A stretch of DNA of 23,026 bases from NCBI GenBank assembly GCA_031366795.1, contig JANLOX010000232.1, positions 1 through 23,026 on the forward strand. The letters are read 5' to 3'. The translations under genes were made by a program, and so were the position numbers. Every line of letters begins with the position of its first letter. Within the stretch, counting starts at the first letter, position 1. The DNA comes from Candidatus Eiseniibacteriota bacterium (lineage in GTDB: Bacteria; Eisenbacteria; RBG-16-71-46). Shown here piece after piece: positions 2 to 21,893 of the stretch. A model generated the notes under the pieces. That model did not search any database and was not told the DNA's origin. It was given only the letters and a program-made list of their open reading frames with translations.

Positions 2-1096
2 CCGATCGGCGGCTTCAGCAACGCCAAGTTGTTTTACTCGGTGAACAAGACCCCGTATGTCAGCGCCAACATGCTCCCGACGGGCAACCCGGACGAGTAC
101 GGTGCCGAAATCCCGAATGAATCCTTCGGCGTGGTGCGCTACTACCTCGTGATCACCGATTCTTACGGCGGCACGTTGTCGCTGCCGCCTGGGGCCCCCG
201 CGCTCGACACCTATGAGTACGTGGCGGGGCCGGCCACGACGCTGCTGTTCGACGCGTTCGAGGCGGCGGATGGGTGGGCCACGTCGTACGCCCCCGACAC
301 GCCTGTGGCGGTCACGGGAATTTGGGAGCGGGGCGTGCCGATCGCGTCGCTCGCTCAACCCGGCGCCGACCATTCGCCCTCTGGCACCCAGTGCTATTAC
401 ACCGGCAACGCGCCGGCGGGTTCTGACCCGGGCGTCAATGACGTCGATGGCGGCAAGACCACGCTGGTCACCACGACGTTCAACGCCACCCCGGCCGGGA
501 TCATCAACCCGATCATCAGCTACTGGCGCTGGTACTCAAACGACGTGGGAGACGCCCCAAACGAGGACCCGTGGCGGGTCTTCGTCTCGAACAACAATGG
601 TTCCACCTGGGCGCTCGTCGAGAACACGAAGGCAAGCAGCAGGGGGTGGCAGCGCAATGTGTTCGCAATCAAGGATTACGTGACGCCGACAAGCACGATG
701 AAGATGCGCTTCATGGCGCAGGACACGCTGAACCCATCGATCGTCGAGGCAGCCGTCGATGACTGGTCGATCGTGGGCTACTCCTCGACCTTGGGTGTGC
801 CCACGCCGCCGTCGCTGACCGAGTTCGCCATGCAACCGGCGTGGCCCAATCCCAGCAGCGGCGCCACGCACCTAAGCTTCACGTTGCCCACCTCGAGTCG
901 CGTCGATCTGGCGGTATTCGATCTCGAGGGACGCCGTGTGCGTTCGCTGCTGGCGGCGGAGCAACCGCCGGGCGCGCACTCGGTCTCATGGGATGGCCGT
1001 GACGGCGTGGGCAAGCGCGTCGCCAGCGGGCCATACTTCGTGAGGCTCACCCGAGGCGGCCAGACGGTCTCACGCGCAGTCGTGTTGATGCGCTGA
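2..1096 (+). CDS. 5'-truncated secreted/surface protein with a beta-sandwich domain and a C-terminal FlgD-Ig/T9SS-type sorting domain
   Basis: Frame is open from the window edge (ccg atc ggc...). Beta-rich, Thr/Gly/Asn-rich body (YWRWYSND...EAAVDD). Tail WPNPSSG...VFDLEGRRVRSL...WDGRDGVGKRVASGPYFVRL is the typical FlgD_ig/secretion-tail pattern. Confidence 0.8.
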   Translation, partial: PIGGFSNAKLFYSVNKTPYVSANMLPTGNPDEYGAEIPNESFGVVRYYLVITDSYGGTLSLPPGAPALDTYEYVAGPATTLLFDAFEAADGWATSYAPDTPVAVTGIWERGVPIASLAQPGADHSPSGTQCYYTGNAPAGSDPGVNDVDGGKTTLVTTTFNATPAGIINPIISYWRWYSNDVGDAPNEDPWRVFVSNNNGSTWALVENTKASSRGWQRNVFAIKDYVTPTSTMKMRFMAQDTLNPSIVEAAVDDWSIVGYSSTLGVPTPPSLTEFAMQPAWPNPSSGATHLSFTLPTSSRVDLAVFDLEGRRVRSLLAAEQPPGAHSVSWDGRDGVGKRVASGPYFVRLTRGGQTVSRAVVLMR

Positions 1097-1217: not shown

Positions 1218-3245
1218 CTATTCCACCGAGAAGGTGACGCTCACCCCTCGCGGTGCCGCGGGCAGGAAACGCTGCTCGCCAAAGCCGCCGATGAACCCGG
1301 ACTCTGCGTAACGGCGGTCGAACAGGTTCTGGAGCCTGGCGCCCGCGTGGATGCGGCCAGTGTGCGCCTGCGCGCCTAGGTCCCACTCCGCGACGGCGCC
1401 AAGGCGCTGCGTCTCGCCCTTGTCGAGGAAGCGGCGGCCGATCAACCTGCTTCCCGCCTCCACCGACCACCACGGCTGCGGCGTCCAACTCAGCGAGGCA
1501 TTGCCAGTGCCCAGCGGCACGCCGTTGATTTGGCGGCCATCGTGGTCGCCGCCGTCGAACGTCGTCGGCGTATAGGCGCCGCCGAACCGGGCAGCCAGAT
1601 GGCCCTGCAACGGGCACGCGAGGCTCGCTTCGATGCCGCGGTGCCAGCTCTTCGAGATGTTCGCGTAGCTCAGCGTGTTGAGATCAAAGTCGATCTCATT
1701 GCGCACGCCCATCGAGTAGCCGGTCAACTGCGCGGTCCAGCCATCGCCACGATCCCAGCGTCCCCCCAATTCGAGATTCACCGCGGTCTGCGGATCGAGC
1801 TGGCCATTCGAGATCAATAGGGCACTCGGCCCGAAGAAGAATGGCCGCTGGTCGTATAGCTGGAACAGGGTCGGCACACGGAACGCCGTGCTCATGTTGC
1901 CATACGCGGTGCCATGCGTGCCCAACTGCAGCGTGAGACCCAGCAAGGGGCTGAATGCCGACAGCGTGCGCGTCTTTGTCCTGGTTCCGGCGATTACATC
2001 GGCGGAGTGCACCTGTGTGATGTCCCCGCGCACGCTGAGCCGGGCCACGGTACGCGAATCGAGTTCAAGGCGCGCGCCCAGCGTCGCGGCACCCATCGAA
2101 CGCGTGCTGCGGGTGCGGGCGAGCGCCGCGCCACGGCCCAGATCCGGGTCGAACGCTTCGTATTGAGATCGCAGGCTCGACTGCTCGCCCGTCGCTTCTC
2201 CCTGCCACACCACGCGGACGCCGCTAAGGTTCGAGTGCGCCCGCCATGCGAGCGAGGCGCCACCGGTGGTGCCGAGCGTGTGGTGGAACTGGGACTGGAA
2301 GAACAGGGTCTGGACCTGGTCGGCGTCCTCGTGGCTCACATAGGGCTTGAACGCCCACGCCGGCTCCGGCCCCGGGCTCGCCTGTACGCTCGCCCCGAGA
2401 CTGCCGCGGCGCGAGTGCTTGAAGTCGATGCGCGAATCCGCATTCGCTGGATTCGCGTCGAAGTCCTGCTGCGTCAGCGCCCCCGGATCCTGCCGGTTGG
2501 CGTCGAGCACGGTCATGTCGATCCGCCACTCGCGGCTACTCCGGCGCATCACGGCTTCGCCGCTGCCGCCATACACGCGTTCGCGGCTGTGCGTGCGCCA
2601 GCCGTCGACCTCACGCGCGAGCGCGCTCGCGCCGAAGCTCGCACCGCCCCAGGGCCCGCTGATCCCGGCATCTCCCCCGCGCAGCCCGAAGCTGCCCGCT
2701 CGCGCCTGCGCGCGTGTGACGAATTGGCCGGACACCGGCGTGCGCACGACATTGACGATGCCGCCTTCGCTCGCGTCGCCGTAGGCCCACGCACCGGGAC
2801 CCTGCACCACTTCGATGCGCTCGATCGCACCCGGAGCGATCCAGTCCCAATCCACGTTGCCGTTCTCGAGGTCGCGCACGTCGCGGCCATCGACGAGTAA
2901 TTTGAGATATGAGCTTTCCCCGCTGGCGGTGAAGCCCCGCGGGTCCACGATCGTGGCGTCCCCGCTCGAGGTCTCGCCGTAGGAGAACAACCCCGGCACC
3001 GTCTGCAGCAAGGTCGACAACCGCGTGGAGCCGGCGCGCCGGATATCGTCGCGGGACAGCACGAACGCTGCCGCAGGAATATCCTCGAGACGGTCCCGTC
3101 CCTTGAGCGCCGTGACTTCGACGCCTGGAATGGGAACCACCATCGTGTCCGCGGTAGCACCAGCCGCGGCGACCGTTCCCGGCACCGCACAGGGGCTCGC
3201 GGCCAGCAATCCCGCCATCACCCACATTCCTGCGACATGCTTCAC
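1218..3245 (-). CDS. TonB-dependent outer membrane receptor
   Basis: Signal peptide; plug motifs (LLQTVPG, RGF, LLVDG, IERIEVVQGPGAWAYG..GGIVNVV); barrel end NLFDRRY...PRGVSVTFSVE. GTG start at 3245 is preceded by AAAGGA (ORF track starts at 3272). Confidence 0.92.
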   Translation of the reverse strand: MKHVAGMWVMAGLLAASPCAVPGTVAAAGATADTMVVPIPGVEVTALKGRDRLEDIPAAAFVLSRDDIRRAGSTRLSTLLQTVPGLFSYGETSSGDATIVDPRGFTASGESSYLKLLVDGRDVRDLENGNVDWDWIAPGAIERIEVVQGPGAWAYGDASEGGIVNVVRTPVSGQFVTRAQARAGSFGLRGGDAGISGPWGGASFGASALAREVDGWRTHSRERVYGGSGEAVMRRSSREWRIDMTVLDANRQDPGALTQQDFDANPANADSRIDFKHSRRGSLGASVQASPGPEPAWAFKPYVSHEDADQVQTLFFQSQFHHTLGTTGGASLAWRAHSNLSGVRVVWQGEATGEQSSLRSQYEAFDPDLGRGAALARTRSTRSMGAATLGARLELDSRTVARLSVRGDITQVHSADVIAGTRTKTRTLSAFSPLLGLTLQLGTHGTAYGNMSTAFRVPTLFQLYDQRPFFFGPSALLISNGQLDPQTAVNLELGGRWDRGDGWTAQLTGYSMGVRNEIDFDLNTLSYANISKSWHRGIEASLACPLQGHLAARFGGAYTPTTFDGGDHDGRQINGVPLGTGNASLSWTPQPWWSVEAGSRLIGRRFLDKGETQRLGAVAEWDLGAQAHTGRIHAGARLQNLFDRRYAESGFIGGFGEQRFLPAAPRGVSVTFSVE

Positions 3246-3296
3246 GTGGAATCCTTTCGCAGCCGGCCGCACCCCGCTCGAGGGCGCAGCATTGGG

Positions 3297-3725
3297 CTAG
3301 GCCTCGAGCGCGGCGTCGAGTGTGATGTCGATGTGGCTGAGTAGGCGCGAAATCGGGCAGCCGGCCTTGGCGCCGTCCGCTGCCGCCTTGAACTGTTCCG
3401 CCGTGGCGCCGGGCACTTTGGCCTTCATTTCCAGATGGACGCCCGTCACCGACCAGCCGGCGTCCAGCTTCTCGAAGTTGAGCGTCGCCTTCGTGCGGAT
3501 CCAGTCCGCGGTCAGACCCGCGCCAGCCAACTGGCCCGCGAACGCCATCGAGAAACAGCCTGCATGGGCAGCCGCGATCAATTCTTCTGGATTCGTCTCG
3601 GTGCCGTCCGCGAAGCGCGAGCGGAACGAGTAGGCCTGGTTCGCGAGCGCGCCACTCTCCGATGAGACGGTGCCCGTGCCCTGCTGCAGTGTTCCTGTCC
3701 ATTCAGCCGATGCGTGACGCTTCAT
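3297..3725 (-). CDS. osmC: OsmC family peroxiredoxin
   Basis: TNPEELIAAAHAGCFSM and GCPIS supply the two catalytic Cys; 142 aa; GGAGG RBS. Confidence 0.95.
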   Translation of the reverse strand: MKRHASAEWTGTLQQGTGTVSSESGALANQAYSFRSRFADGTETNPEELIAAAHAGCFSMAFAGQLAGAGLTADWIRTKATLNFEKLDAGWSVTGVHLEMKAKVPGATAEQFKAAADGAKAGCPISRLLSHIDITLDAALEA

Positions 3726-3783
3726 GCGAATCCTCCATGGCGTTGGAATCCAGCGCCCATCGCGGGGTCGTGTGACGGTGATT

Positions 3784-5226
3784 TCAGAACGGAGCAGCCT
3801 GCTCCGTGGATGGCTCCGCTCAGCAGTACCACGGCTCGGTAAGGTAGGGAATCAGGGTGGCGTCGTGGTGCAGTCCACTGGGCTCCCGCACGGCTTCGGT
3901 CCATCCCTCGAAAACGCGTTGCCGGATCCGCTCGAACAGTTCCAGGCGCGTCAGCCCCGCGGCGGCACCCTGCTCGACCAGCCGGAACAGGTCCCGTTGC
4001 AGCGCGTCGATGGCGGGATCAGGATGCCGCCACGGATACACGAGCGCTTCCGCATCGAACGGCCCCACCTGTTCGCGGATCTCGGGCAGTTCGAGGAGGA
4101 GCGAACCGGCGGGAATCAGCAGCCGGATCGCCAGCTGGACAGGCGCCACGGCGGCCGCCAGCCCCTCGCTTTCCAGCGTTTCGAGCAGATCGCGCAGGGC
4201 AGCCCGGCTCGTCCACGGCGTGAACGGCATGAACGTCGGGCTGAGCGAAAGCCCATGGTCTCGAAACGCCGCGACGACCGCGAGGAAATCTGCGCGCGTG
4301 TGGCCCTTGTCGAGCCGGCTCAACACCGCGTCGTCCAGCGACTCGACGGCGCTGGTGACGAAGGCGCACCCGGTATCGCGCAAGGCCACGAGGTGTTGGC
4401 GATGCGCGAGCAGGTGCTCGATCTTGATCGTCACGTCGTAAGTGATGTGGGGATGCTCCTCGTGCAGCGCACGTACCAGCGGCAGCGCGTGCCCGATGCC
4501 ATTCCAGAAGTCGGGATCGCCGAACGTGATGTGCGTGGCGCCCGCCCGCACCTGGCGCCGCACATCCTCGAGCACTACGTCGCGCGGGACGATGCGGAAG
4601 CGGCCGTCATAAACGGGCACGATCGGGCAATGGCGGCAACGGTGCTTGCAGCCGCGGCTCGCCTCGGTCGCGCCCACCAGCCGCAGGGAACCGTCGCGAT
4701 CGCGCAGCTGGGCGTAGCGCTCGAGCCGCGGCAGCCCATCGCGATTCGGAGCGCGGAAGGCCAGGCGCTCGAACGATGTGACGACCCGCGCGGCGGAAGA
4801 CGTTTCGGCTTGGGATGCCGGCGCGTGGATGAAATCAGGTATTGAGCCCGCCACCCCGCGAGCCGCGAGTCCATTGACGAAATCCAGCAACTCCTGCTCG
4901 AACTCGCCACCCAGCACGGCCGTAGCACCCAGCCCCTGCAACATCGCGGCATTGACCGGCGCGTACAGGCCGAAGAAACACAGGGCCGCCGCGGGATTCA
5001 GCTTCCGCAGGCGAGGCAGATGGCGAACCGCGAGCCGCGTCGCCGTGTGCATCGGCAGGTGGAACGCGATGACATCCGTTCCCGCCGGCAGCGCATCGCC
5101 CTTGGACTCGACCGCGAGGTCGAGCAGCGTGACGTCGTGACCGGCCTGCCTCAGCCATGCTGCCGGTGAGGCCAGCCCAAACGGCTGGCGGCCGAGGTCA
5201 TACGTCGATACGAGAACGACGCGCAT
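3784..5226 (-). CDS. CUAEP-tail radical SAM selenoprotein (B12-binding-like N-terminal domain), 480 aa with Sec at residue 469
   Basis: SRGCKHRCRHC is the CxxxCxxC motif. The C-terminus reads tgg tac tgc TGA gcg gag cca tcc acg gag cag gct gct ccg ttc TGA = WYC-U-AEPSTEQAAPF*. In-frame TGA at 3820-3822, next stop at 3784-3786. Confidence 0.9.
3789..3807 (-). promoter_or_regulatory. Candidate bacterial SECIS element
   Basis: Perfect hairpin ACGGAGCA-GGC-TGCTCCGT (or a 7-bp stem with an AGGCT loop) starting 12 nt after the in-frame TGA, with G in the apical loop. Confidence 0.75.
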
Positions 5227-5234: not shown

Positions 5235-5831
5235 CTAATCCCCGTAGGGAGAACGGCCCCCCTTGGAGGGACGGAAGTAGGGATTGCGGCCGTCGGCGTG
5301 GTCCGTGGTATCGACGACGCCCACGATCGAGGGCACCAACTCACGGATGCGCACTTCGATGCCCTGCTTGAGCGTGACATCCGCCATACCGCAGCCCTGG
5401 CAACCGCCTCCCAACTGGATGAAGGCCGTCGCATCGCGCACGTCGAGCAAGGTGATGACACCCCCGTGCGACGCCACGGCGGGGTTGATGTCGTCGTCGA
5501 TCACCTTCTGGACCGCGAGTGCCACCGGGTCGGCCCACAGGGGATTCGGGTTGTCGATCTTGAAGCCGCTCTGCCCCTCCTGCTCGACGAAGTCGATGGT
5601 GGCGCCGGCAAGGTTTGGGGCGCTCTGCGGGTCGACCAACACGACCAGTGCCCCGACCGTCACGACCACGTCGTCCGCGCCCTGTTCGGCGCGATCGGCG
5701 AACGCCAGCTGGTACAGGAACACACCCTGTCCGCGGCCCTTCACGCCGAATCGCAGCGCGAGTCCGTCCTTGCCTTGCGCCCTTATCATCTCGAGAATTT
5801 TGTCGCGGGCCACGTCGGTCACGGTGATCAT
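5235..5831 (-). CDS. nfuA: Fe-S biogenesis protein NfuA (degenerate A-type carrier domain plus NifU C-terminal domain)
   Basis: MITVTDVARDKI...GATIDFVE...GFKIDNPN then INPAVASHGG...GGGCQGCG (CxxC). ATG at 5831 with AGGAG RBS; the longer ORF-track start overlaps the upstream gene. Confidence 0.9.
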   Translation of the reverse strand: MITVTDVARDKILEMIRAQGKDGLALRFGVKGRGQGVFLYQLAFADRAEQGADDVVVTVGALVVLVDPQSAPNLAGATIDFVEQEGQSGFKIDNPNPLWADPVALAVQKVIDDDINPAVASHGGVITLLDVRDATAFIQLGGGCQGCGMADVTLKQGIEVRIRELVPSIVGVVDTTDHADGRNPYFRPSKGGRSPYGD

Positions 5832-5862: not shown

Positions 5863-7092
5863 TTACTCGGTATGGATTTCGAAACGCAACTGGCCGTGAG
5901 CCTTACGCAAGGCGGATTCTGCGTCTTCCGGAGACGCTCCGTGTGTGAACAGGAATCCGAGGTAGCGATGGCCCTCGGGCGGAGCCAGCACCGGATGCCC
6001 GATGGGAATGGTGATCCGGACCTCGTCCACACCGGGAACCGCCAAGGCTCCTTCGATGCCGTGCACACCGTGAAGGATCCCGGATTTAGGCACCGGGACC
6101 ATCATCACCCCGCGGGATTCGGTCTCCCGTTGCCAGTTCTCGACATCCTCGCCCACGGCATGTCGCAGCAGCAATTCCTCGAGCGTGTGCCCCTCACCGA
6201 AGCGCAACGCCCGCGAACATAGCCCTCCAATCGAGCGGGGCGCAATCTCCAGCGGCCAACAGCCCGCCGCATTCAAGCGCACTTCGGCGTGCACGGGGCC
6301 CTGCGTCAGCCCGAGTGAGGCAGCCATCGCCGCGACCTGTCGCGTCGCGGCCTCGAGCTGCCCGCGAGTGTGGCGGGACGGCGTGACGTAGATCGTTTCC
6401 TCGAACGCCGGACCCTCGAGGGGGTCAGGCTTGTCGAACACCGCCAGCACACGCAGTTCCCCGCGGGTGAGCAGGCCCTCAACGGCGATCTCGTCGCCGG
6501 GCACGTACTCCTCGACCAGTACTTCGGCGTCGCTCCCCTCGAGCCCCGCGTCCGCCATGACGTGCACCACGCGCTGGAACGCCGCGGCGAATTCCGCGGG
6601 GGAATTCGCGCGCAGCACACCCCGGCTCGCCGAGAGCGTCGGAGGCTTGAGCACACACGGGTAGTGCAACTGCGACGCGATGGTCCGGGGGTCGGTCGCT
6701 ACAGGCCAGATCTCGAACCACGGCGGAGGCACGCCCGCTTCGGCGAGCACAGCCCGCATCAACCGCTTGTCCCGCGCCTGCTCCACCGCGCGCAGCGGCG
6801 AGCCGGCGTGGCCCAACGCTTCGCCAATCGCAGCAGCGGCGCGCAGGCCATCGTCGTCGCAGGCGAGCACAGCAGTGAGCGGATAGCGCTCATGGAACGG
6901 GCGCGCCGCGAGCACTGCTGCGGCAACATTCACGAAATCGAGCGGCAACACCCCTTGCGGGTTTGCCATGGAGATCCAGGAATCGTGGTCACTCCCCACA
7001 ACAGCCATGAACCCGAGCCGCTGGGCGGCATCGAGGAACGCCTGCGCCTTGTAGGAGCGGGTGCCCATAACGAGAAGAACGCGCGTGTCCAT
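5863..7092 (-). CDS. ATP-grasp domain protein (L-amino acid ligase-like)
   Basis: ARDKRLMR, YPCVLKP..LSASRGV, VLVEEYVPGDEIAVEG, GPVHAEVRL, LEIAPRSIGG, plus a C-terminal LAL-type domain. Confidence 0.9.
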   Translation of the reverse strand: MDTRVLLVMGTRSYKAQAFLDAAQRLGFMAVVGSDHDSWISMANPQGVLPLDFVNVAAAVLAARPFHERYPLTAVLACDDDGLRAAAAIGEALGHAGSPLRAVEQARDKRLMRAVLAEAGVPPPWFEIWPVATDPRTIASQLHYPCVLKPPTLSASRGVLRANSPAEFAAAFQRVVHVMADAGLEGSDAEVLVEEYVPGDEIAVEGLLTRGELRVLAVFDKPDPLEGPAFEETIYVTPSRHTRGQLEAATRQVAAMAASLGLTQGPVHAEVRLNAAGCWPLEIAPRSIGGLCSRALRFGEGHTLEELLLRHAVGEDVENWQRETESRGVMMVPVPKSGILHGVHGIEGALAVPGVDEVRITIPIGHPVLAPPEGHRYLGFLFTHGASPEDAESALRKAHGQLRFEIHTE

Positions 7093-7179: not shown

Positions 7180-8970
7180 TCAGTGAACCAGGATCATCGT
7201 GCGGTAGGCGACCTTGCCACCGACCATGAGCCTCGCGAAGTAGGTGCCGCCCGCGACGTGGACGCCGCGGTCGTCGCGCGCATCCCAGGTCGCACTCTGC
7301 GCTCCGGCCTGAAGTTCCGAATCCACCACCGTGCGCACCAGCCGTCCCGCGAGATCGTGGATCCGCAGCGTGGCCCGTGATCGCAACGGCATATTGAAAC
7401 GCAGCGTCGTGGATTCGCGGAACGGATTGGGATACGCCGCCGCAAGACTCACACCGCCCGCGAGTGGCTGGCCGCCTACACCGAGTATGTGCGGGCAGAT
7501 GATTTCACCCACGGCCGTCCATGCGCCCGCGATACCCGGGTCGTAGGAGTCCAGAATCAGGTAGTAGATCCCGCGCGTCGTGAACTTGTAGCGGAAGTGC
7601 TCCATCTGCGCAGCACCCGAGGTATCGGATCCCGCGACGCAGGTTGTGGCGATGCTGTCGCAGTTCGTCACCAGGTAAATCGAAGCGTCGACATCATCCT
7701 TGCCGTTGACGTGCGGGAACACGTAGTCGCACCAGATGCTGTCCCCCGGTGATGCATCGATCCGGTATACGAGGTCAGCGCCCTGCGCCGAGAAACCGGT
7801 GCAGCCCGCTTCGGTCGGGTCGTAGTCCGGGAACGCCAGCGTGTTGTCGCCCGACAACTGGAACGGTCCGCACGGCAGGTACGCGGCCGAAGCGCACTGG
7901 TCGTTGGTCGGCACGTTGAGACCGCAGGTCAGCGAACCCACGAGGGACCAACCGCCATCCGTGTTGAGTCCGTCCGCGTCCAGAACGAGGAAGTACGAAC
8001 CGGTATAGAGGAACCGGAAGTTGAGCGTCTCGGTGCCGCCCGGGCCGGTGTTATTGGCGCCGACGAGGCAGTTCACCGGAGTGCCGCTCTTCTGGCAGTC
8101 GGGCATGATGTACAGGATGCCGTCCGCCGTCGAGGTGTAGGAGACCGACAGGCTGTCGCCCGCATTGACCTGCATGCTGTAGACGACGTCGCGGCCCTGC
8201 GCGAGCGAACCGACGCACGAGGTACTGACGCTCGGGAAGGCGTAATCATTCTGCGCGGTGACGGTGTTGCCGGAGAACAGGAAGCCGCCACAATAAATAC
8301 CCGTCGCGGTCTCACAGCGGTCGTTCACCGGCGGATGCAGGCCGCACGAGAAGAACTGGCCGACGAGCGACCAGTTGCCATAAGTGTCCTGTCCATAGGA
8401 ATCGAGAACCAGGTAATAGGTACCGGTGGTCGGGAAGCCATAACGCAAGTTCTCGGCGCCACCCTGGCGGTTCTCGTCGGCACCTGCCACGCAGCTCGTG
8501 GTCGGCTGCGCGCAATTCTTGATGATGTAGATCGAACCATCCGCGCTCGAGGTGTAGCGCAGCCACACGCTGTCCCCCGCTACAGCGTCGAACCGGTAGA
8601 CGACATCGCGGCCGGACGCCGAGTATCCGGTGCACGACAGCGTCGTATCCGGGAAGTCGTAATCGTTGGTGGCGAGGAAGGTGCTGCCGGCCAGGCTGAT
8701 GTTGCCACACGGAATGCTGATCGCACCGGCGCACTGATCATTGGCGGGCGGGTCGAGCGTCACGCCAAACGGATTGGAGAGCGGCGCCGGGACCGGCTTG
8801 AGGCGCAGCAGTTTGGGCGCACGAACGTGCGCGGTGGACCGCGTGGTTGCGGCCACGAGTTCCACGGGCGTCGTGACCGTGGATCGCGAAGCCGCGGCAC
8901 CTGCACCTGCCGCCAGGGCACACGCGAGCGAGACAATCCCCAACACAAGGCATCGAGAATGGAGCCGCAT
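7180..8970 (-). CDS. Secreted protein with three Cys-rich PPC-like beta-sandwich repeats and a C-terminal FlgD-Ig/T9SS-type domain (596 aa)
   Basis: Signal peptide MRLHSRCLVLGIVSLACALAAGAGA from ATG 8970; three repeats starting NDxC; tail YPNPFRESTTLRF...HDLAGRLVRT...WDARDDRG...GGTYFARL. Confidence 0.85.
   Translation of the reverse strand: MRLHSRCLVLGIVSLACALAAGAGAAASRSTVTTPVELVAATTRSTAHVRAPKLLRLKPVPAPLSNPFGVTLDPPANDQCAGAISIPCGNISLAGSTFLATNDYDFPDTTLSCTGYSASGRDVVYRFDAVAGDSVWLRYTSSADGSIYIIKNCAQPTTSCVAGADENRQGGAENLRYGFPTTGTYYLVLDSYGQDTYGNWSLVGQFFSCGLHPPVNDRCETATGIYCGGFLFSGNTVTAQNDYAFPSVSTSCVGSLAQGRDVVYSMQVNAGDSLSVSYTSTADGILYIMPDCQKSGTPVNCLVGANNTGPGGTETLNFRFLYTGSYFLVLDADGLNTDGGWSLVGSLTCGLNVPTNDQCASAAYLPCGPFQLSGDNTLAFPDYDPTEAGCTGFSAQGADLVYRIDASPGDSIWCDYVFPHVNGKDDVDASIYLVTNCDSIATTCVAGSDTSGAAQMEHFRYKFTTRGIYYLILDSYDPGIAGAWTAVGEIICPHILGVGGQPLAGGVSLAAAYPNPFRESTTLRFNMPLRSRATLRIHDLAGRLVRTVVDSELQAGAQSATWDARDDRGVHVAGGTYFARLMVGGKVAYRTMILVH
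7495..8751 (-). repeat. Three tandem ~140-aa protein repeats (starts near 8751, 8334, 7914)
   Basis: Each unit has NDxC..A..(I/L)xCG, (N/P)DY, CxGxxAxGxD(V/L)VY, GDS, D(G/A)x(I/L)Y, CxxG, G(T/S/I)Y(Y/F)L(V/I)LD, GxW(S/T)xVG and a terminal Cys. Confidence 0.9.
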
Positions 8971-9231
8971 GGGAGCAATCTCCGAGTTGAGCGTGGCGAG
9001 GCGGCAAGCGCGCTGCAAAAACCGCGACCCAAGGGATGGTCCGGCGGCCATTCGAGTGGTGGTATCGCGCGGGGATCGGGCCGGGGTTAGCCGATTTCGA
9101 ACCCACGATGTTGCTGGAAGCCTAAGCATGAGCCTATCACCCACCTGAGGCGTGCGCCACGGCTCCATTGCGACGGGGCGTGGTTTTCCCGTGAATTTTT
9201 CACTCCCAAGACGTCTGCTCCCCCAAGGGGC

Positions 9232-9247
9232 TGCAAGGGGTGCGCCA
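9232..9247 (-). promoter_or_regulatory. Candidate sigma54 (-24/-12) promoter
   Basis: Minus strand TGGCGC-ACCCC-TTGCA fits TGGCAC-N5-TTGC(A/T) with correct GG/GC spacing; intergenic and oriented toward the 8970 gene. Confidence 0.6.
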
Positions 9248-9352
9248 GCCGCCCCGGACGCGAAACCGCCGAAACCACCGCCGGGCACGCCGGGCAGGGA
9301 CGATCGGCGCGGCAATATGCCCCAGCAATAGCGCCGCCTGACCCGGCCCGGC

Positions 9353-10978
9353 CTATTGGTAGCGGGCTCGAACAGCCTGGGCAAACTCCTCAAGGTCATC
9401 GTAGCGATTCGCCCAGGTGGCATAGAGAATGGCCTCGACGTGCTTCACCCCACGGCTCGCCTCGATCCAGCGCTCGATCGACTGGACGGGCCCGTCGTAG
9501 TAGCCGGCGATAATCTGGGGATGCCCTTGCCGCGAGAAGAATTCGAGCGACTCATGGGGCCGCGTCTCGTTCCAGTTCACAACCCCGACACGGGCGTCGA
9601 GTCCGTTCGCGGCGCCCTCCAGGCTGCCCCGCACGAGGTAGAACTCGCGGATCGCATTTTGCCGCGGGTCGAACATGTCGCCCCATACGCAGAGCGTGTC
9701 CCCAGGCAGCATCGCGGCACAGCGGCGCACGGCATTCGCGAGAATGGTGCCCGCCGGCAGACCGGTGCGAATGCAGGCGGAGTCGCCACCGAGCGCGCGG
9801 ATTTCATCGAACATCATGAGGTACCGCCCCGTCCCCCACACCACCTGCATGCGCCGCGCCTCGTCCTCGAGCCGTGCCCAGGTGCCCGCTTCGGACAGGC
9901 AACACGTCGCCTGCGTCCCCCCCACGATCGCCGCATGCTGCCAGCTGCCGAGCAGCCGCGTGCCGTCGGGCCGCGACACGTGGAGCGGCGGCGGATCGTG
10001 CCACTCGGTGTACTGGCCTGCCCACGGATCGCGACCCATCCAAGGGTCGGCGAACGGCGCGAAGTCCACGCCCTCGACCAGCGGCGCTCCGGTCACCGCA
10101 TCGCGCAGCGCGAATGGGGCGTCGGCGCGGCGCACCATGTTCATGGGCCCCGCCTCTTCGATCGCCCAGTCCCGCCACTCGAGCAGGCCGCGCGTGCGGC
10201 TACGGACGCCGAAGGTGATTCGGACTTTGGAGTACTCGAGCGAGTTGAACATCACGTCGTAACGCGTCCACTCCTGGTTCGTCGTGAAGCGGACACTGTT
10301 CATGAAGTGCAGCCGCCGCTTGCCCGCAAACACCCACACGCGCGGACTCCCATGGAAGTCGCGCGTGCGCATCCACCACGACAGGTGGTAGGCGCTCGCC
10401 CGCTTCACCGGCACGTCGTACCACCAGCGCGCGCGCCACAGGCAGCGCTGCGTCGCCACGTGGTTCGAGTCGACGTCGACTCCCCAATCCTGCCCCGCGG
10501 GATTGGCGGGGAAGGCCACCGGCGTGGTGGAGTGCGGGCTGGCTATGCCACCGCGGACTTCGAATTCGGCGTTCTCCACCGGCAGCGACTCGACGAGATT
10601 CGGGTCACCCGCCAGCAGCGCGCCCGAGCGGCCCACCTGGAAGATGCCGGGCACGATCGACAGCCCCAATGAATCGGCGAGCTGCCGCAACCGTGCTGCG
10701 TGCTCGAAATACGCGGGGCGCATGTCGCCGAGACGCCCGAATTTGTGGTCCGCGAGCACCACGCGCCGGTAGCCGGCCTTAGCCGCGCGCGTCCACAGCG
10801 GCGCGATCCGCTCGACGCAATCGGACTCGGACAGGTTGGCGATCTGGTAGAACCAAAGCTCGGGAGGCGGGCCTGCCAGCGGCTCCTTGTGCCGCGCGCA
10901 CCCCGGCATCGCCGCCAACGTCAACGCGATGAGGGCCCACCGCCTCGCACCGCGACCCAGCCGGCTCCATCCCCGCAT
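9353..10978 (-). CDS. Putative lipoprotein with a glycoside hydrolase-like TIM barrel (GH20-like) and an inserted CBM-like jelly-roll
   Basis: Basic N-region, hydrophobic stretch and AMPGC lipobox-like Cys; YLMMFDEIR (DE pair) and VWGDMFDP; central YHLSWWMRT...QEWTRYDVMFNS segment resembles CBM4/9. ATG 10978 with GGAG RBS. Confidence 0.65.
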   Translation of the reverse strand: MRGWSRLGRGARRWALIALTLAAMPGCARHKEPLAGPPPELWFYQIANLSESDCVERIAPLWTRAAKAGYRRVVLADHKFGRLGDMRPAYFEHAARLRQLADSLGLSIVPGIFQVGRSGALLAGDPNLVESLPVENAEFEVRGGIASPHSTTPVAFPANPAGQDWGVDVDSNHVATQRCLWRARWWYDVPVKRASAYHLSWWMRTRDFHGSPRVWVFAGKRRLHFMNSVRFTTNQEWTRYDVMFNSLEYSKVRITFGVRSRTRGLLEWRDWAIEEAGPMNMVRRADAPFALRDAVTGAPLVEGVDFAPFADPWMGRDPWAGQYTEWHDPPPLHVSRPDGTRLLGSWQHAAIVGGTQATCCLSEAGTWARLEDEARRMQVVWGTGRYLMMFDEIRALGGDSACIRTGLPAGTILANAVRRCAAMLPGDTLCVWGDMFDPRQNAIREFYLVRGSLEGAANGLDARVGVVNWNETRPHESLEFFSRQGHPQIIAGYYDGPVQSIERWIEASRGVKHVEAILYATWANRYDDLEEFAQAVRARYQ

Positions 10979-11090
10979 CTGGTTTTCTCCCTTCAAGACG
11001 CGCCCCACCCGCTCCGGAGCGGGCCCATTTGAGCATCGCGCGCACGATAGGCAAATGCCGGGAGCGCGTCGAGTCGCCCGGGAATTCCAC

Positions 11091-11120
11091 TTGACGCATG
11101 AACCGAAATGCATTTTTATT
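11091..11120 (+). promoter_or_regulatory. Probable sigma70 promoter of the arg operon
   Basis: TTGACG at 11091-11096, 17-nt spacer, weak -10 (TTTTAT) lying inside the ARG box. Confidence 0.5.
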
Positions 11121-11158: not shown

Positions 11159-11626
11159 GTGGCACGAGCCCGCCGTTTGACATTGATCGCCCAACTGCTG
11201 AGCAGCCGACGCTTCGCCAGCCAGGAAGAGGTCGGCAAGGCGCTGGCGCGCGCAGGGATCGAGACCACGCAGGCGACGCTGTCGCGTGACCTGCGCAGTC
11301 TTGGCGTGGCCAAGCGGGCCGATGCCGATGGCGGCAGCTGGTACGAGTTGCCGCATCCCGCCCTTGAAACGCTGGATCGCGAGCGCCGCCGGCTGGACCT
11401 GCGTTCCTTCGTCAATGAAGTCCGCGTGGCCCAGAATCTCGTGGTCGTGCGCACTCCCCCCGGGCATGCGAATGCCGTCGGGCGCGCCATCGACCTCGCG
11501 GAATATGAGGGTGTGGTGGGCACCGTAGCGGGCGACGACACCGTTCTGCTGGTCAGCGAGGATGCCGCCGGGGCGCGGCGCCTGAAGCGCGAACTCGAGT
11601 TACTCGCCAACGGCGGCACGAAGTGA
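11159..11626 (+). CDS. argR: Arginine repressor
   Basis: SQEE, TQATLSRDL, VRTPPGHA, GTVAGDDT; GTG 11159 after GGGAGG. Confidence 0.95.
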   Translation: MARARRLTLIAQLLSSRRFASQEEVGKALARAGIETTQATLSRDLRSLGVAKRADADGGSWYELPHPALETLDRERRRLDLRSFVNEVRVAQNLVVVRTPPGHANAVGRAIDLAEYEGVVGTVAGDDTVLLVSEDAAGARRLKRELELLANGGTK

Positions 11627-12702
11627 CGAGCCCGCTGAGCACGATACCCAAGCGCATGGCCACGCCGTCCGCGGCATCCCTGCCGGCGACTCGCGCGACT
11701 ATCGCGGTGCTTGGCGCCAGTGGCTACTCAGGCCAGGAGTTCGTCCGGCTGGCCTCGGCGCATCCTGGTCTCGACATCGCGCAGCTCGTCTCGCGCGAAT
11801 TCGCGGGGCAGCCCGCGGGAGCCATGCTGGTCGGCCTCGGCGCGCGCGTGGCGCCGCCCGTCGTGACGCCCGGTGCGGCGCTTGCCGCGGTGCGCGAGGG
11901 CGCTATCGACACGATCGTCGCCTGCCTGCCGCACGGCGCCTGGCGCGAGCTGTCGGCCCAGTTCTACGACGCTTCCCCGTCCCCCAAGGGATTGCGCGTG
12001 GTCGATCTGTCCTCCGATTTCCGCGACGAGTCGGCCGATTACCGCTATGGCCAGCCGGAGTCACGGCGGGAAGGGCTTGCGGGCGCCATGCGCATTGCCA
12101 ACCCGGGCTGCTACCCCACCGCTTCGACGCTGGCGTTGTGGCCGGCATTGGCGCGCAACCTGCTCACCGGTCCCATCATGGTGAGCGCCATCTCGGGCCT
12201 GACGGGAGCTGGGCGCACCGCCGCGGCACGCAATGCTTTCGTTGAGCGCGACGGCGGCGCCGAGCTCTACAAGGCCGGCACGATCCACGCGCACGCCAGC
12301 GAGATGGCGCGGCACTGGGCCGGCGCGCATGGCGCTGCACTTCCCGTCGGCTTCGCGCCGCAGGTGGTGCCGATGACGCGTGGCATTCTTGCCGTCATCA
12401 ACGCGACACTCCACGAGCCGCTGAGCCCCGAGCTGGCCCACGAACTGTGGTCGCAAACCTACGCCGACGAACCCTTCGTGCGCGTGCTCCCCGCCGGTCA
12501 GTGGCCCGACACGCGCGCGGTCAAGGGCTCCAACCGCTGCGACGTCGCAGTCACCACGCTGCATGACGGGCGCACACTGCTGGCCACATCGGCCATCGAC
12601 AACCTCGTCAAGGGTGCCGCGGGACAGGCGATCCAGAACCTCAACCTCATGCTCGGCTGGCCCGAGTCCACGGCGCTGCCCGTGGACGGCCTGCCCTGGT
12701 AA
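11623..12702 (+). CDS. argC: N-acetyl-gamma-glutamyl-phosphate reductase
   Basis: GASGYSG, DLSSDFR, IANPGCYPT, DNLVKGAAGQAIQNLN; GTGA overlap with argR (the start could instead be Met at 11656). Confidence 0.95.
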   Translation: MTSPLSTIPKRMATPSAASLPATRATIAVLGASGYSGQEFVRLASAHPGLDIAQLVSREFAGQPAGAMLVGLGARVAPPVVTPGAALAAVREGAIDTIVACLPHGAWRELSAQFYDASPSPKGLRVVDLSSDFRDESADYRYGQPESRREGLAGAMRIANPGCYPTASTLALWPALARNLLTGPIMVSAISGLTGAGRTAAARNAFVERDGGAELYKAGTIHAHASEMARHWAGAHGAALPVGFAPQVVPMTRGILAVINATLHEPLSPELAHELWSQTYADEPFVRVLPAGQWPDTRAVKGSNRCDVAVTTLHDGRTLLATSAIDNLVKGAAGQAIQNLNLMLGWPESTALPVDGLPW

Positions 12703-12728
12703 GCGGTCTCAAGGGAGCATCGCGACTC

Positions 12729-13562
12729 ATGACACAGCGCAATTCCATCGCGCCACCCAAGGCGGCGCCTTCGATTCCGGTCATCGTCATCAAACTCGGC
12801 GGCCGTGCCCTCGATGCGCCCGGCGCCGAAGCCGAGCTGGCGGATGCTCTCACTGCGCTCGAGGGCCACGCCGTGCTGGTGCACGGCGGTGGCAACGAAG
12901 TGACGGCGTGGTGCCAGCGACTCGGCCACACCCCGCAATTCCAGAACGGACTGCGCCTCACCGATGACACCACGCTCGAAGTCGCGGCCGCCGTCCTGGG
13001 GGGTCTCGCCAATGCGCGTCGCGTCGCGAGCCTGAGGGCTCACGGCGTCGATGCCCTTGGCTTGAGCGCGGGTGATGGCGGCCTGCTCGAAGTGCGGCTG
13101 CATCCCGATGCCGCCCAACTGGGCCATGTCGGCGTCGCCACCGGGGTTCGCCTCGAGTTGCTTGAGCAGTTGCTGGCACTCGGGCTGACGCCCGTCGTCT
13201 CGAGTATCGGCGCCTGCGATGGCGCGCTGCTCAATCTCAACGCCGATGAAGTCGCGGGCGCCCTGGCCTCAGGCCTCAAGGCACGCGCGCTGGTCATGCT
13301 CAGTGATGTCGATGGCGTGATGCTCGATGGCGCGCTGGTCTCGCGAATCAATGCGGCCGAACTGCCGCAATTGCTGCAACGCAGCGATATCCGCGACGGC
13401 ATGGTGCCTAAGCTGCGGGCCGCGGCACGCGCGCTCGAGGGCGGGGCGCAACGGGTATGCATCGCCGCATGGCGCGGCCCTGAAACACTCACGCAGATCA
13501 TGAACGGCACCCAGCCGGCCACCACGCTTTGCCGGGGCCATGAGGAGACCACGTATGCCTGA
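12729..13562 (+). CDS. argB: Acetylglutamate kinase
   Basis: VIKLGG, VHGGG, GLRLTD, NLNAD, SDVDGV, GMVPKL. Confidence 0.95.
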   Translation: MTQRNSIAPPKAAPSIPVIVIKLGGRALDAPGAEAELADALTALEGHAVLVHGGGNEVTAWCQRLGHTPQFQNGLRLTDDTTLEVAAAVLGGLANARRVASLRAHGVDALGLSAGDGGLLEVRLHPDAAQLGHVGVATGVRLELLEQLLALGLTPVVSSIGACDGALLNLNADEVAGALASGLKARALVMLSDVDGVMLDGALVSRINAAELPQLLQRSDIRDGMVPKLRAAARALEGGAQRVCIAAWRGPETLTQIMNGTQPATTLCRGHEETTYA

Positions 13563-14859
13563 CGCCACCACGCTCGACACGGCAGCCGTCGAAACTGCCG
13601 CAGTGACCCCGCCCAACGCCGCACCCGCCACGGGTCCTTCGCCGTTTGCGGACGACGAACTGGGACTCATCGCGCCCAATTACCCGCTGCCCCGGCTCGA
13701 GCTGGTCTCGGGACGTGGTGTGTGGGTCACCGACAAGAACGGCACGCGCTACCTCGACTTCGTCAGCGGTATCGCCGTGAATGCCCTGGGCCACGCGGCA
13801 CCCGCCGTGGCGCGCGCCGTGGCCAAGCAGGCGCGTGTGCTGGGGCAGGTCTCCAACCTGTTCGCCAACCGCCCCGCCACGACGCTCGCGCACCAACTCG
13901 CCGAGACGACGGGCTACCCAAACGTGTTCTTCTGCAACTCGGGCACCGAGGGCGTTGAAGCCGCGCTCAAGTTCGCGCGGGCCCGGGCGCGCCAGAAGGG
14001 ACTCAGCGGCCGCGATGTCGTCGCCTTCCGCGGGGGATTCCATGGCCGCACCGCCTTCGCGCTCTCGGCAACCTGGACGCCCTCCTATCGCGAGCCGTTC
14101 GAACCCTTGATGCCCGGCGTCCGCTTCGGTGACTTGAACCAGCTCGCTGGGCTCGACACGCTGATCGATGAGCACGTCGCGGCGGTAATCGTGGAACCCG
14201 TGCAGGGCGAAGCGGGCGCCATTCCTGCCACGCGCGAGTTCCTGCACGCCCTGCGCAAGCGCACCGAAGCCGTAGGCGCGGCATTGATCCTCGACGAGGT
14301 GCAGAGCGGCATGGGCCGCTGCGGCTCCCTGCTGGCGCAGCAGCAGTTCGGCGTCAGCGGCGACTACACGGTGCTGAGCAAAGCGCTCGGCGGCGGTCTA
14401 CCCCTGGGCGCCGTGCTGATGACCGCGGACGCCGCCAGTTCGCTCGCGCCCGGCATGCATGGCTGCACCTTCGGCGGCGGCGCCATCGCGGCCAGCGCTG
14501 GGATGGTGGTGCTCGAACGCGTGAGCAACGCGGGCTTCCAGACGCGCGTCCGCTCTCGCGGGCGCAGGCTGATGGCCGGGCTCAAGCGCGTCGTGAAGGC
14601 GCATGCCTCGGTCGCCGAAGCGCGCGGTCTCGGGCTGTTGCTGGCGATCGACCTCGCGCAGGATGCCGGCTTCGACGCCGCGACCCTCGTGCGCGCCGCG
14701 CGCGAGCACGGACTGCTGCTGGTGCGTGGTGGCGAGCGCGCCGTGCGGCTGTTGCCGGCCCTCATCGTCACCCCTGCCGAAATCGATCAGGCGCTCGAGC
14801 GCCTCGATGCGGCACTGACCTCACTCGAATCCAACACTCCCGCAAAGGACAACTCATAA
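13555..14859 (+). CDS. argD: Acetylornithine aminotransferase (class III PLP enzyme)
   Basis: YLDFVSGIAVNALGH, NSGTEGVEAA, FHGRT, EPVQGEAG, DEVQSGMGR, SKALGGG; ATG 13555 after GAGGAG. Confidence 0.93.
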   Translation: MPDATTLDTAAVETAAVTPPNAAPATGPSPFADDELGLIAPNYPLPRLELVSGRGVWVTDKNGTRYLDFVSGIAVNALGHAAPAVARAVAKQARVLGQVSNLFANRPATTLAHQLAETTGYPNVFFCNSGTEGVEAALKFARARARQKGLSGRDVVAFRGGFHGRTAFALSATWTPSYREPFEPLMPGVRFGDLNQLAGLDTLIDEHVAAVIVEPVQGEAGAIPATREFLHALRKRTEAVGAALILDEVQSGMGRCGSLLAQQQFGVSGDYTVLSKALGGGLPLGAVLMTADAASSLAPGMHGCTFGGGAIAASAGMVVLERVSNAGFQTRVRSRGRRLMAGLKRVVKAHASVAEARGLGLLLAIDLAQDAGFDAATLVRAAREHGLLLVRGGERAVRLLPALIVTPAEIDQALERLDAALTSLESNTPAKDNS

Positions 14860-16190
14860 TGACGCAGGCGACCCAGGTGAAGCGCGCAGTGCTTGCCTAC
14901 TCGGGCGGGCTCGACACCAGCATCATCGTGCACTGGCTCAAAGCCCGCTATGGCTGCGAAGTCATCTGCTACTGCTCCGACGTCGGCCAGGGCGCCGAAC
15001 TCGACGGTCTCGCCGAACGCGCGCGCCGGCTCGGTGCCGACGAGGTGGTCGTCGAAGACCTGCGCATGACGTTCGTGCGCGACTACTGTTTCCCCGCGCT
15101 CAAGTCCGGCGCGGTGTACGAAGGCCGCTACCTGCTCGGCACCTCGCTGGCGCGCCCGCTGATCGCCGCGCGGCAGGTTGCCGTGGCACTCGAGCACGGC
15201 GCCGATGCCGTAGCGCACGGCTGCACCGGCAAGGGCAACGACCAGGTCCGCTTCGAGCTCGCCTACATGTCGCTGGCGCCCGAACTCAAGGTGCTTGCCC
15301 CCTGGCGCGACCCGGCGTGGACGATCCGCTCACGCGAGGATGCGCTGGCCTATGCCGCCCAGCACAACCTACCCGTGCAGCAGACCTCGCGCGACCTCTA
15401 CTCGCGCGATGCCAACCTGTGGCACCTCTCGCATGAAGGCGGAGTGCTCGAAGACCCGGCGAACGCCCCGGAAGAGTCCATGTTCCGCCTGACTGCGGCC
15501 CCGGCATCGCACCCGGCCGAGCCCGAATGGGTCGCCATCGGGTTCGAGGCGGGACGCCCCGTCTCGCTCAATGGCACCGAACTGGATCCCGTGACGCTCG
15601 TCGGCGAACTCAACACGCGCGCCGAGAAGCATGGCGTGGGGCGCGCCGATCTCGTGGAGAGCCGGATGGTCGGCATGAAGTCGCGCGGCGTCTACGAGAC
15701 GCCGGCAGGCACCGTGCTCTATGAAGCGCTCGAAGACCTGTGCCGTCTCGTGCTGCCGCACGACCTGCATCGCACTCGGGCGACCCTCGCGCTGCAGATG
15801 GCGGACCTGATCTACTCGGGCCAGTGGTTCTCGCCGCTGCGCCGCGCCCTGCAGGCATTCGTCGACAACGCCATGCAGGTGGCCACCGGCACGGTCACGG
15901 TCCAGCTCCACCGCGGCACCGCCGTCGCCGTCTCGCGCACCAGCCCGATGTCGCTCTACAGCGCGAATCTCGCGTCATTCGACATGACCGGCTACAACGC
16001 CGCGCACGCCGAAGGCTTCATCCGCTTGTTCGGGTTGCCGCTGGCCGCTGCAAGCCAGCGTGGGTCACGCAAGGATGCCATGCTGGCCAGCCCCGGCGGT
16101 GGCGCCTACGCCCCCACGCCCGGCGCGGCGGATCCCAACGCCACCAAGGCAGCCCAGCCGGCGAAGTCCGAGGTCAGTCATGCAGGCTAA
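14859..16190 (+). CDS. argG: Argininosuccinate synthase
   Basis: LAYSGGLDTS, HGCTGKGNDQVRFE, SRDANLWHLSHEGG, KSRGVYETP; TAATG coupling to argD. Confidence 0.97.
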   Translation: MTQATQVKRAVLAYSGGLDTSIIVHWLKARYGCEVICYCSDVGQGAELDGLAERARRLGADEVVVEDLRMTFVRDYCFPALKSGAVYEGRYLLGTSLARPLIAARQVAVALEHGADAVAHGCTGKGNDQVRFELAYMSLAPELKVLAPWRDPAWTIRSREDALAYAAQHNLPVQQTSRDLYSRDANLWHLSHEGGVLEDPANAPEESMFRLTAAPASHPAEPEWVAIGFEAGRPVSLNGTELDPVTLVGELNTRAEKHGVGRADLVESRMVGMKSRGVYETPAGTVLYEALEDLCRLVLPHDLHRTRATLALQMADLIYSGQWFSPLRRALQAFVDNAMQVATGTVTVQLHRGTAVAVSRTSPMSLYSANLASFDMTGYNAAHAEGFIRLFGLPLAAASQRGSRKDAMLASPGGGAYAPTPGAADPNATKAAQPAKSEVSHAG

Positions 16191-18177: not shown

Positions 18178-18245
18178 ACCCGCGCTCGAACCGGCATGGC
18201 GCCGGTCCCGCCGCGGACCTTGAAGCAGGAAGGAGCAACACCACG

Positions 18246-19336: not shown

Positions 19337-19422
19337 TGGTGCCGAGAGCAGGACTCGAACCTGCACGGGGTTACCCCCAAGGGATTTTAAGTCCCCTGCG
19401 TCTGCCATTTCGCCATCCCGGC
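19337..19422 (-). tRNA. tRNA-Leu (anticodon TAA)
   Basis: GCCGGGATGGCGAAATGGCAGACGCAGGGGAC-TTAAAA-TCCCTTGGGGGTAACCCCGTGCAGGTTCGAGTCCTGCTCTCGGCACCA: acceptor stem, long variable arm, GGTTCGAG T-loop and encoded CCA. Confidence 0.97.
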
Positions 19423-19431
19423 ACACCACTC

Positions 19432-21346: not shown

Positions 21347-21893
21347 GGAGCTTCACCTCTTCGGCGCCATGGCCCTTCATAAGTTCAGCGGCGCGCGTGG
21401 CTTCGTCGCCGCGGCATGGCACCCAGATGCCGATGCGGTCGTCGGAGAAACGCGGGTCGGACGGCGAGGGCGCCTTGATCTGCGGCAGGCGACCGAGCGC
21501 CAGCATGCCGAGGAGATTCGAGATGCAGCCGATCAGGATCATGCTTTCGTAGCCGATGATCACGAACGGCGGCAGCGAGGTGAGTTCCTTGCCCCCGACC
21601 ACGAGTGGCCACGAAAACATCGAGTAGAAGCACAGCGAGAACCCGGCGGTGCAGCCGAGGAACGCGCCGCACGCGGTGATCCAGCGCACCAGTGAAGGCC
21701 GCTGCCCGAGCGCGTGTTCGATCGAATGGTGCGGCACCGGGGACTTGACCACGATCTCCTTGTGGCCGAGTCCGCGCAGGCCGGTGACGGCGTGCTCCGC
21801 ATCGTCGACGTAGTAGAACACGCCCAAGACGCCGTGGTACTGGACCTTCGGGCCCTCGAGCAGTTTCTCGATCAAACTCAGGAGGAACTTCAT
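21339..21893 (-). CDS. actD: Alternative complex III subunit ActD (DUF3341)
   Basis: SPVPHH, two TM helices around WPLVVGGK, DPRFSDDR, GAEEV. Confidence 0.88.
   Translation of the reverse strand: MKFLLSLIEKLLEGPKVQYHGVLGVFYYVDDAEHAVTGLRGLGHKEIVVKSPVPHHSIEHALGQRPSLVRWITACGAFLGCTAGFSLCFYSMFSWPLVVGGKELTSLPPFVIIGYESMILIGCISNLLGMLALGRLPQIKAPSPSDPRFSDDRIGIWVPCRGDEATRAAELMKGHGAEEVKLHG

Follow-up and report, generated by a model that had tools for sequence, protein, structure and literature searches.

The stretch of DNA analysed here, which we call the window, covers positions 1 to 23,026 of contig JANLOX010000232.1 from a Candidatus Eiseniibacteriota genome (23,026 nt, G+C content of 66.9%), and its subject is a minus-strand gene for a radical S-adenosylmethionine (SAM) enzyme that appears to be a selenoprotein. 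The conventional open reading frame (ORF) of this gene, 5226..3820 (-), encodes 468 aa with the C-terminus ...PYLTEPWYC, followed by a TGA codon at 3822-3820. Beyond this TGA, the frame stays open for A-E-P-S-T-E-Q-A-A-P-F and reaches a second TGA at 3786-3784. Translated with TGA as U, the full gene, true stop included, occupies 3784..5226 (-) and gives a read-through product of 480 aa, in which the first TGA (3820..3822, (-)) would encode selenocysteine (Sec) as residue 469, right after Cys468, and the second (3784..3786, (-)) would be the true stop after an 11-residue tail. The CxxxCxxC motif of the radical SAM cluster, formed by C193, C197, and C200, is encoded at 4627..4650 (-). Within the coding sequence of the tail, at 3807-3789 (-), ACGGAGCA-GGC-TGCTCCGT can form a hairpin with eight Watson-Crick pairs and a 3-nt loop, which begins 12 nt past the end of the first TGA and codes for T-E-Q-A-A-P. 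An earlier reading of this DNA, made from the letters alone, had described both a frame that continues past ...PYLTEPWYC-TGA through AEPSTEQAAPF to the TGA at 3784-3786 and a perfect hairpin at 3789-3807 that starts 12 nt after the first TGA and codes for part of the tail. All coordinates and residues of the extended frame were correct, and the hairpin was confirmed in the sequence.

When the read-through product was compared with the NCBIfam profiles, it scored 617.3 bits against NF040546, "CUAEP/CCAEP-tail radical SAM (seleno)protein", an equivalog model with a curated cut-off of 500 bits, and its residues 3-478 were aligned with profile positions 1-467 of 468, covering the tail. The second-ranking family was ArsL (NF040542), with 278.8 bits over residues 4-420 and thus under the cut-off of 450, while every other named family scored at most 50 bits. 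The Pfam Radical_SAM domain (PF04055) was matched with 48.7 bits, and the match to the Pfam B12-binding domain was sub-threshold (19 bits against a cut-off of 32.1). The sequence-only reading had named a CUAEP/CCAEP-tail radical SAM family in which Cys and Sec alternate; this family exists, and the window protein passes its cut-off with the tail included. The protein shares with the family the CxxxCxxC motif, the C-terminal C-U-A-E-P, and the alternation of Sec and Cys at the same column. No protein difference from the family at large was seen, and the tail of the window's lineage is short, with 11 residues after Sec.

Relatives were then compared in two sets. In the first, 41 genomes were searched, the window's own counted, and 14 sequences exceeded the NF040546 cut-off. 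Each of the 14 genomes with a family match had exactly one in-frame TGA, which stood in all cases within EPW[Y/F]C-TGA-AEP and was followed, after AEP, by 8-20 more residues (11-23 in total after Sec) and a final stop of TGA, TAG, or TAA. The three cluster cysteines C193, C197, and C200 were invariant in the protein alignment of the 14 sequences, together with P460, L462, E464, P465, and W466 ahead of the vicinal pair, the pair itself (C468 and U469), and A470, E471, and P472 behind it. In the DNA alignment of the same relatives, the A, E, and P codons that follow the TGA varied at their third positions and were invariant at the other two. This codon pattern is the signature of translation past the TGA under purifying selection.

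The second set came from a scan of one genome per species, from which the best 80 of at least 547 relatives were taken as named loci. Over the stretch compared, one of these duplicated a sequence of the first set, leaving 93 distinct sequences of 94. By their record titles, the 80 loci belong mostly to Acidobacteriota, with Chloroflexota, Methylomirabilota, Latescibacterota, Calditrichota, Gemmatimonadota, Verrucomicrobiota, Actinomycetota, and others also represented. The motif W[Y/F]C-x-[A/S/V]-E-P was kept in all 80 loci, and the codon at x was TGA in 51, TGC in 22, and TGT in 7; one of the Cys forms (L086) comes from a cultured actinomycete. On a quick maximum-likelihood tree of all 94 sequences, built without the Sec/Cys site and without the tail, the Sec/Cys state changed at least 12 times. 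The alignment of homologue C-termini had been proposed as a check of the sequence-only reading, with TGA expected opposite Cys codons and AEP conserved behind them, and it came out in this way. The length of the tail after the Sec/Cys site fell into two classes in the named loci: a short one of 11-14 residues, as in the window, and a long one of 25-50 residues that ends in a hydrophobic F-V-type C-terminus and is common in acidobacterial loci (for example, L056, L062, and L072).

These comparisons bear on the alternative that the TGA is an ordinary stop. In that case the enzyme would end in ...WYC at 468 aa, which is exactly the product that standard gene calling yields, and the conservation downstream would have another cause, for example a terminator or regulatory hairpin before the OsmC gene that follows. 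However, AEP is conserved in frame with synonymous third-position changes, in 29 of the 80 homologues the site is a Cys codon and the frame runs unbroken through this tail, and the NF040546 profile is aligned through the tail.

The hairpin was considered first as a single sequence. The window contained 10 perfect hairpins with a stem of at least 8 bp and a loop of 3-8 nt, compared with a mean of 6.5 and a maximum of 13 in 30 dinucleotide-preserving shuffles of the window. The 45-nt RNA folded with z = -2.2, and 6 of 200 shuffles folded at least as well. Taken alone, this G+C-rich hairpin is no more than what chance provides, which speaks for the ordinary stop and against recoding. Comparison across species makes the hairpin significant. 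In all 14 relatives, it lay at the same place in an ungapped register, with 92% of the cells paired and compensatory changes in five of the eight pairs, and none of 500 shuffles reached its covariation score; when the register was slid by 1-3 columns, pairing fell to 46-63%. The peptide encoded under the hairpin varied (for example, E-E-P-A-A-P, T-E-Q-A-A-P, and E-A-Q-F-A-P) with the pairing kept. Since the peptide changes while the pairing stays, the constraint would act on the RNA.

The presence of the hairpin was also linked to the codon at the Sec/Cys site. A hairpin at the fixed place with at least six of seven stacked pairs was found in 48 of 51 TGA forms, compared with 4 of 29 Cys forms, in counts restricted to the 80 named loci, whose sequences are related, so that no formal probability is claimed. 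The mean minimum free energy (MFE) of the 36 nt downstream was -11.6 kcal/mol for the TGA forms and -8.0 kcal/mol for the Cys forms (Mann-Whitney p ~1e-5, with independence inflated by kinship). These results bear directly on a terminator, as the hairpin was lost in 25 of the 29 Cys forms, which would need a terminator equally; moreover, no T-run follows the hairpin. The hairpin expected by the sequence-only reading as a selenocysteine insertion sequence (SECIS) was accordingly present, covarying, and specific to the TGA forms.

In its position and loop, the hairpin resembles known bacterial SECIS elements, such as those in genes for formate dehydrogenase, which likewise are stem-loops located immediately 3ʹ of the UGA within the coding sequence and have an apical loop starting with G. 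It differs from them in its short perfect stem and 3-nt loop, in having no evident bulged nucleotide, and in matching no Rfam family. All apical loops of 65 TGA forms contained G, and 53 contained G-T. The loop of the window's lineage is GGC, in contrast to the A-G-U-U type common in acidobacterial NF040546 loci. A different candidate for the SECIS, a 9-bp stem in which the UGA flank GAGCGGAGC pairs with GCUCCGUUC, was rejected; it had no compensatory pairs, and the shuffles equalled the observed values. The compact hairpin is preferred to this stem because the latter shows no covariation.

The genome of the window (474 contigs, 96% complete) was searched for the Sec machinery, another check that had been proposed with the sequence-only reading, and selA (501.8 bits), selB (331.7 bits over model positions 2-340, incomplete), selC (tRNA-Sec), and selD (364.6 bits) were all found. 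The tRNA-Sec scored 67 bits, was located ~140 nt downstream of selD, and was called tRNA-SeC(tca) by ARAGORN. The genome also carries a second selenoprotein gene, a fragment of the formate dehydrogenase alpha gene (fdhA) with an in-frame TGA at ...SCNRT-U-HAPSV.... This gene is divided between two contigs, with one part at G000:C281:3-719 (-) (locus L133) and the continuation on G000:C71, and has its own downstream hairpin. Counted from the U of the UGA, the apical loop is at nt 24-26 in the radical SAM gene and at nt 22-26 in fdhA, and both loops start with GG, at a distance of ~21-23 nt from that U. Within the window itself, an apparent second tRNA-Sec at 19340-19423, which reached 47.1 bits in Rfam against a gathering score of 47, was discarded, as ARAGORN identified it as tRNA-Leu(taa) at 19337-19422 (-). 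Such a tRNA-Leu(taa) matching the Rfam tRNA-Sec model is a false positive to be borne in mind in selC screens that use Rfam only.

The full Sec machinery in the genome is a further point against an ordinary stop, which we regard as very improbable. It also bears on a different alternative, in which the TGA is translated by a general reassignment of the code (to Trp or Gly) or by near-cognate suppression instead of as Sec. The frame would indeed be open under any code that gives TGA a residue. Nevertheless, the gene itself ends in a TGA, and normal stops under table 11 close the window's other long ORFs; the homologues show Cys at the site, never Trp or Gly; a position-specific hairpin goes with the TGA; and tRNA-Sec(tca), selA, selB, and selD are present. 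Reassignment or suppression has, in our view, next to no probability. On the evidence of the comparisons above, the ordinary stop, the reassigned code, and the terminator hairpin are each contradicted by the relatives, the Cys forms, the hairpin, and the Sec machinery.

Several observations weigh against decoding of the UGA as Sec with the compact hairpin as its SECIS, in addition to the chance-level result for the single sequence. The ORF of selB leaves the end of its contig after 544 aa, and the mRNA-binding C-terminus would lie beyond that end. The GGC loop of the window's lineage lacks the G-U that 53 of the 65 TGA-form loops contain. As the hairpin is inside the coding sequence, peptide and RNA constraints are entangled, and the contrast between TGA and Cys forms is drawn across related, non-independent sequences. 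An Rfam scan of 3650-3950 with E up to 10 returned only chance-level matches to snoZ206 and malK-III, and the stem involving the UGA flank, rejected above, is the MFE structure of the isolated 45-mer.

With these points taken into account, the UGA at 3822-3820 is almost certainly decoded as Sec, with the 8-bp stem-loop serving as a bacterial SECIS. The best explanation of the minus-strand gene 5226..3784, and a highly probable one, is a CUAEP/CCAEP-tail radical SAM selenoprotein of 480 residues. In the proposed mechanism, the stem-loop, which lies within the coding sequence 12 nt beyond the UGA, would act as the SECIS and bring SelB together with Sec-tRNA(Sec) to a ribosome that has paused at this codon; after Sec, 11 more codons would be translated before the true stop. 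Judged by the conserved frame, the correct annotation is 480 aa, not 468, and ORF callers cut this Cys-Sec protein short. The residue that ordinary ORF calling cuts off is probably catalytic or substrate-binding. The sequence-only reading had arrived at a 480-aa selenoenzyme with a vicinal Cys-Sec pair truncated by gene callers, a view that the family profile, the relatives, the hairpin, and the Sec machinery now back.

The structure of the protein was modelled with AlphaFold2 from the 14-sequence alignment, giving a mean predicted local distance difference test (pLDDT) score of 83.9 and a predicted template modelling score (pTM) of 0.84. Residues 461-470, which include C468 and U469, had a mean pLDDT of 79, and the flanking blocks had 55-56. 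Because this segment is predicted better than the poorly predicted blocks on its two sides, the model suggests that the Cys-Sec (CU) segment docks on the protein core. The best solved fold match was AprD4 (6fd2; Foldseek E 1.2e-18, template modelling (TM) score 0.66-0.69), followed by the cobalamin-type radical SAM enzymes TsrM and OxsB. All three have in common with the window protein a radical SAM barrel and a Rossmann-type N-domain, but their identity to it is 14-19%, and none of them has a CU tail. When solved structures were searched by sequence, only distant radical SAM cores were recovered (AprD4 and MgmA, E ~1e-8). Among the solved structures in the copy searched, neither the sequence search nor the fold search found one of ArsL.

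Five co-directional genes on the minus strand extend from 7092 down to 1218, and the radical SAM gene is the third of them. The first (5863..7092, (-)) encodes an ATP-grasp ligase of the L-amino-acid-ligase type (Pfam ATP-grasp_4, LAL_C2, and ATPgrasp_N), whose nearest solved protein is the L-amino acid ligase BL00235 (3vot, E 1.5e-31), with BacD next. The second (5235..5831, (-)) encodes an NfuA-like Fe-S carrier of 198 aa (Pfam NifU and Fe-S_biosyn; TIGR03341 at 120 bits, below the cut-off of 269), and its stop lies 8 nt ahead of the start codon of the radical SAM gene. Downstream follow two local neighbours, an OsmC-family peroxiredoxin (3297..3725, (-); TIGR03562, 179 bits), which is outside the conserved core, and a TonB-dependent receptor (1218..3272, (-); Pfam Plug and TonB_dep_Rec_b-barrel). 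The receptor was also considered as a CU motif-type selenoprotein receptor and rejected, since it scored 24.7 bits against a cut-off of 700 for NF049946 and contained no in-frame TGA.

The ligase is the conserved partner of the radical SAM gene. Of 13 relatives, 12 have a homologue adjoining the radical SAM gene; the contig of the 13th stops 0.7 kb upstream. In the named loci, the ligase was adjacent in 56 of 80, there usually downstream instead, and by clustering it was found in 65 of 93 loci. With tblastn at E up to 1e-5, the NfuA-like gene was detected in 5 of 13 relatives, and the others have a gap of ~0.7 kb with no tblastn match to it; clustering placed the gene in 17 of 93 loci. Of the local neighbours, the OsmC gene was nearby in 4 of 13 relatives and the TonB-dependent receptor in 5 of 13. 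Apart from the ligase and the NfuA-like gene, clustering of the neighbours in the 93 loci, in which many clusters were shadow ORFs of high-G+C genes, yielded only lineage-specific synteny (G6PD, glucokinase, Lgt, HAD, ABC ATPase, and DUF169). A DUF169 (COG2043) gene was located between the radical SAM gene and the ligase in 9 of the 93 loci (for example, L070:7504-8256) and may accompany the module as an accessory gene in some Acidobacteriota.

The nearest characterised relative of the window protein is ArsL, of arsinothricin biosynthesis, which has in common with it the domain plan and vicinal chalcogen residues on a C-terminal tail. As described in one study, ArsL cleaves SAM to a 3-amino-3-carboxypropyl (ACP) species and builds the C-As bond in hydroxyarsinothricin; As(III) is bound by the RCCLKC tail at its C-terminus, which the enzyme needs to form the product but not to cleave SAM (10.1101/2024.02.01.577332). 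According to another, As is bound by each of the three cysteines in the tail, and the authors propose an organometallic Fe-C(ACP) species (10.64898/2026.04.29.721666). A 2022 preprint by Haft reads CU motifs in selenoproteins as a sign of interaction with heavy metals; the proteins concerned (SAO-locus proteins, HgcA, and MerT-type proteins) also have adjacent Cys and Sec and are often truncated at CU by gene callers, but their folds and pathways are unrelated to those of the window protein, and the metal-binding role is the preprint's own proposal (10.1101/2022.07.06.499078).

We tentatively propose, as one possibility, that the protein is a class-B-like radical SAM enzyme, that its Cys-Sec tail holds a thiophilic substrate, and that the ligase acts on its amino-acid product. 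The enzyme would combine the Rossmann-type N-domain with a [4Fe-4S] site at CxxxCxxC, with no auxiliary-cluster cysteines. The vicinal Cys468-Sec469 pair is taken as a soft-ligand arm, which might hold a metalloid or chalcogen species at the site of SAM cleavage, because ArsL, the nearest characterised relative, holds arsenite on its Cys-rich tail. An unusual amino acid would then be handed to the co-inherited L-amino-acid-ligase-type ATP-grasp enzyme, and the NfuA-like protein could supply the Fe-S cluster.

A number of differences weigh against this assignment of function. The score of the window protein against ArsL is under that model's cut-off, as given above, and the ArsL model leaves the tail unaligned. 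The tail reads W-Y-C-U-A-E-P instead of R-C-C-L-K-C, with no third conserved Cys after it, so that there are two conserved chalcogens here against three As-binding tail cysteines in ArsL. The module is found among housekeeping genes in other phyla, and scanning of the window ORFs with Pfam and NCBIfam gave no arsM or other ars family. The window protein further differs from ArsL in ~48 extra residues ahead of the tail and in having the ATP-grasp ligase as partner, with no arsM or ars genes nearby.

The tail could alternatively work in redox chemistry, with Cys-Sec as a redox-active selenenylsulfide on a mobile tail that gives an H atom or electrons and so resolves or quenches a radical intermediate of ordinary 5ʹ-deoxyadenosyl (5ʹ-dA) chemistry. 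Animal thioredoxin reductase, which ends in Gly-Cys-Sec-Gly, offers an analogy for such a selenenylsulfide tail, and interchange of Sec and Cys is usual at redox-active sites. In keeping with this, the vicinal Cys-Sec pair is near the C-terminus and invariant in all 14 relatives, the interchange of Sec and Cys is repeated (at least 12 changes), the OsmC peroxiredoxin gene is directly downstream in the window, and AprD4, the best solved fold match, is an ordinary 5ʹ-dA radical enzyme. However, the closest relative in sequence is by far ArsL (278.8 bits, against at most 50 for the others), whose tail cysteines bind the substrate instead of undergoing redox cycling, and only 4 of 13 relatives have the OsmC gene nearby. 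We consider a redox role of the tail unlikely.

Returning to the substrate-holding arm, a more specific version of it would be a two-step pathway that has not been described. In this scheme, the ACP group of SAM would be transferred onto As, Sb, Se, Te, or S held by the Cys-Sec arm, and the new carbon-heteroatom amino acid would then be made into a dipeptide by the ligase, in the manner of the Trojan-horse antimetabolites of BacD-type ligases. This scheme is speculative, and we think it doubtful.

Elsewhere in the window, an arginine biosynthesis cluster was found at 11623-19223 (+), with argC, an argD-type transaminase, argG, argH, and argF, in which argH is fused to a C-terminal GNAT N-acetyltransferase domain (705-aa ORF). 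Genes for secreted proteins with C-terminal FlgD-Ig-like / T9SS type A sorting domains lie at 29-1096 (+) and 7180-9423 (-), and the larger of them (7180-9423) also has a PPC pre-peptidase domain. An ORF of 586 aa at 9353-11113 (-) has a coding-like G+C content at third codon positions (GC3) and no Pfam or NCBIfam match, and is 86% identical in a relative of the same genus. Four co-directional ORFs with GC3 values of 0.87-0.93 are located at 19503-23011 (-); three of these have no NCBIfam match at E up to 1e-8, and the fourth has a weak match (36 bits) to a DsrP/NrfD-like membrane subunit.

By its sequence, the gene product is almost certainly a real selenoprotein, but of a known family, as both the family and its Sec/Cys alternation are already curated in NCBIfam. 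In the full-text literature, "CUAEP" or "CCAEP" was found in no relevant paper besides the CU-motif preprint, where a single sentence names the NF040546 family as an "uncharacterized" CU-motif selenoprotein (10.1101/2022.07.06.499078). The main texts of two papers on bacterial selenoproteins (PMC13326102 and PMC12013277) do not contain "radical SAM", and no published description of the SECIS of the CUAEP/CCAEP-tail family was found. What is added here is the comparative evidence for a SECIS, namely covariation and the link to the TGA forms, and a count of the Sec/Cys switches; the contrast between TGA and Cys forms amounts to a clean natural experiment on the purpose of the hairpin. The family is the nearest relative of ArsL, the only canonical radical SAM enzyme known for the ACP species and a carbon-arsenic bond, and its conserved ligase provides a handle for finding the product of the enzyme. 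If the proposal for the Cys-Sec arm is true, radical SAM chemistry would use Sec as a ligand that holds the substrate, and we found no description of such a role for Sec in the literature.

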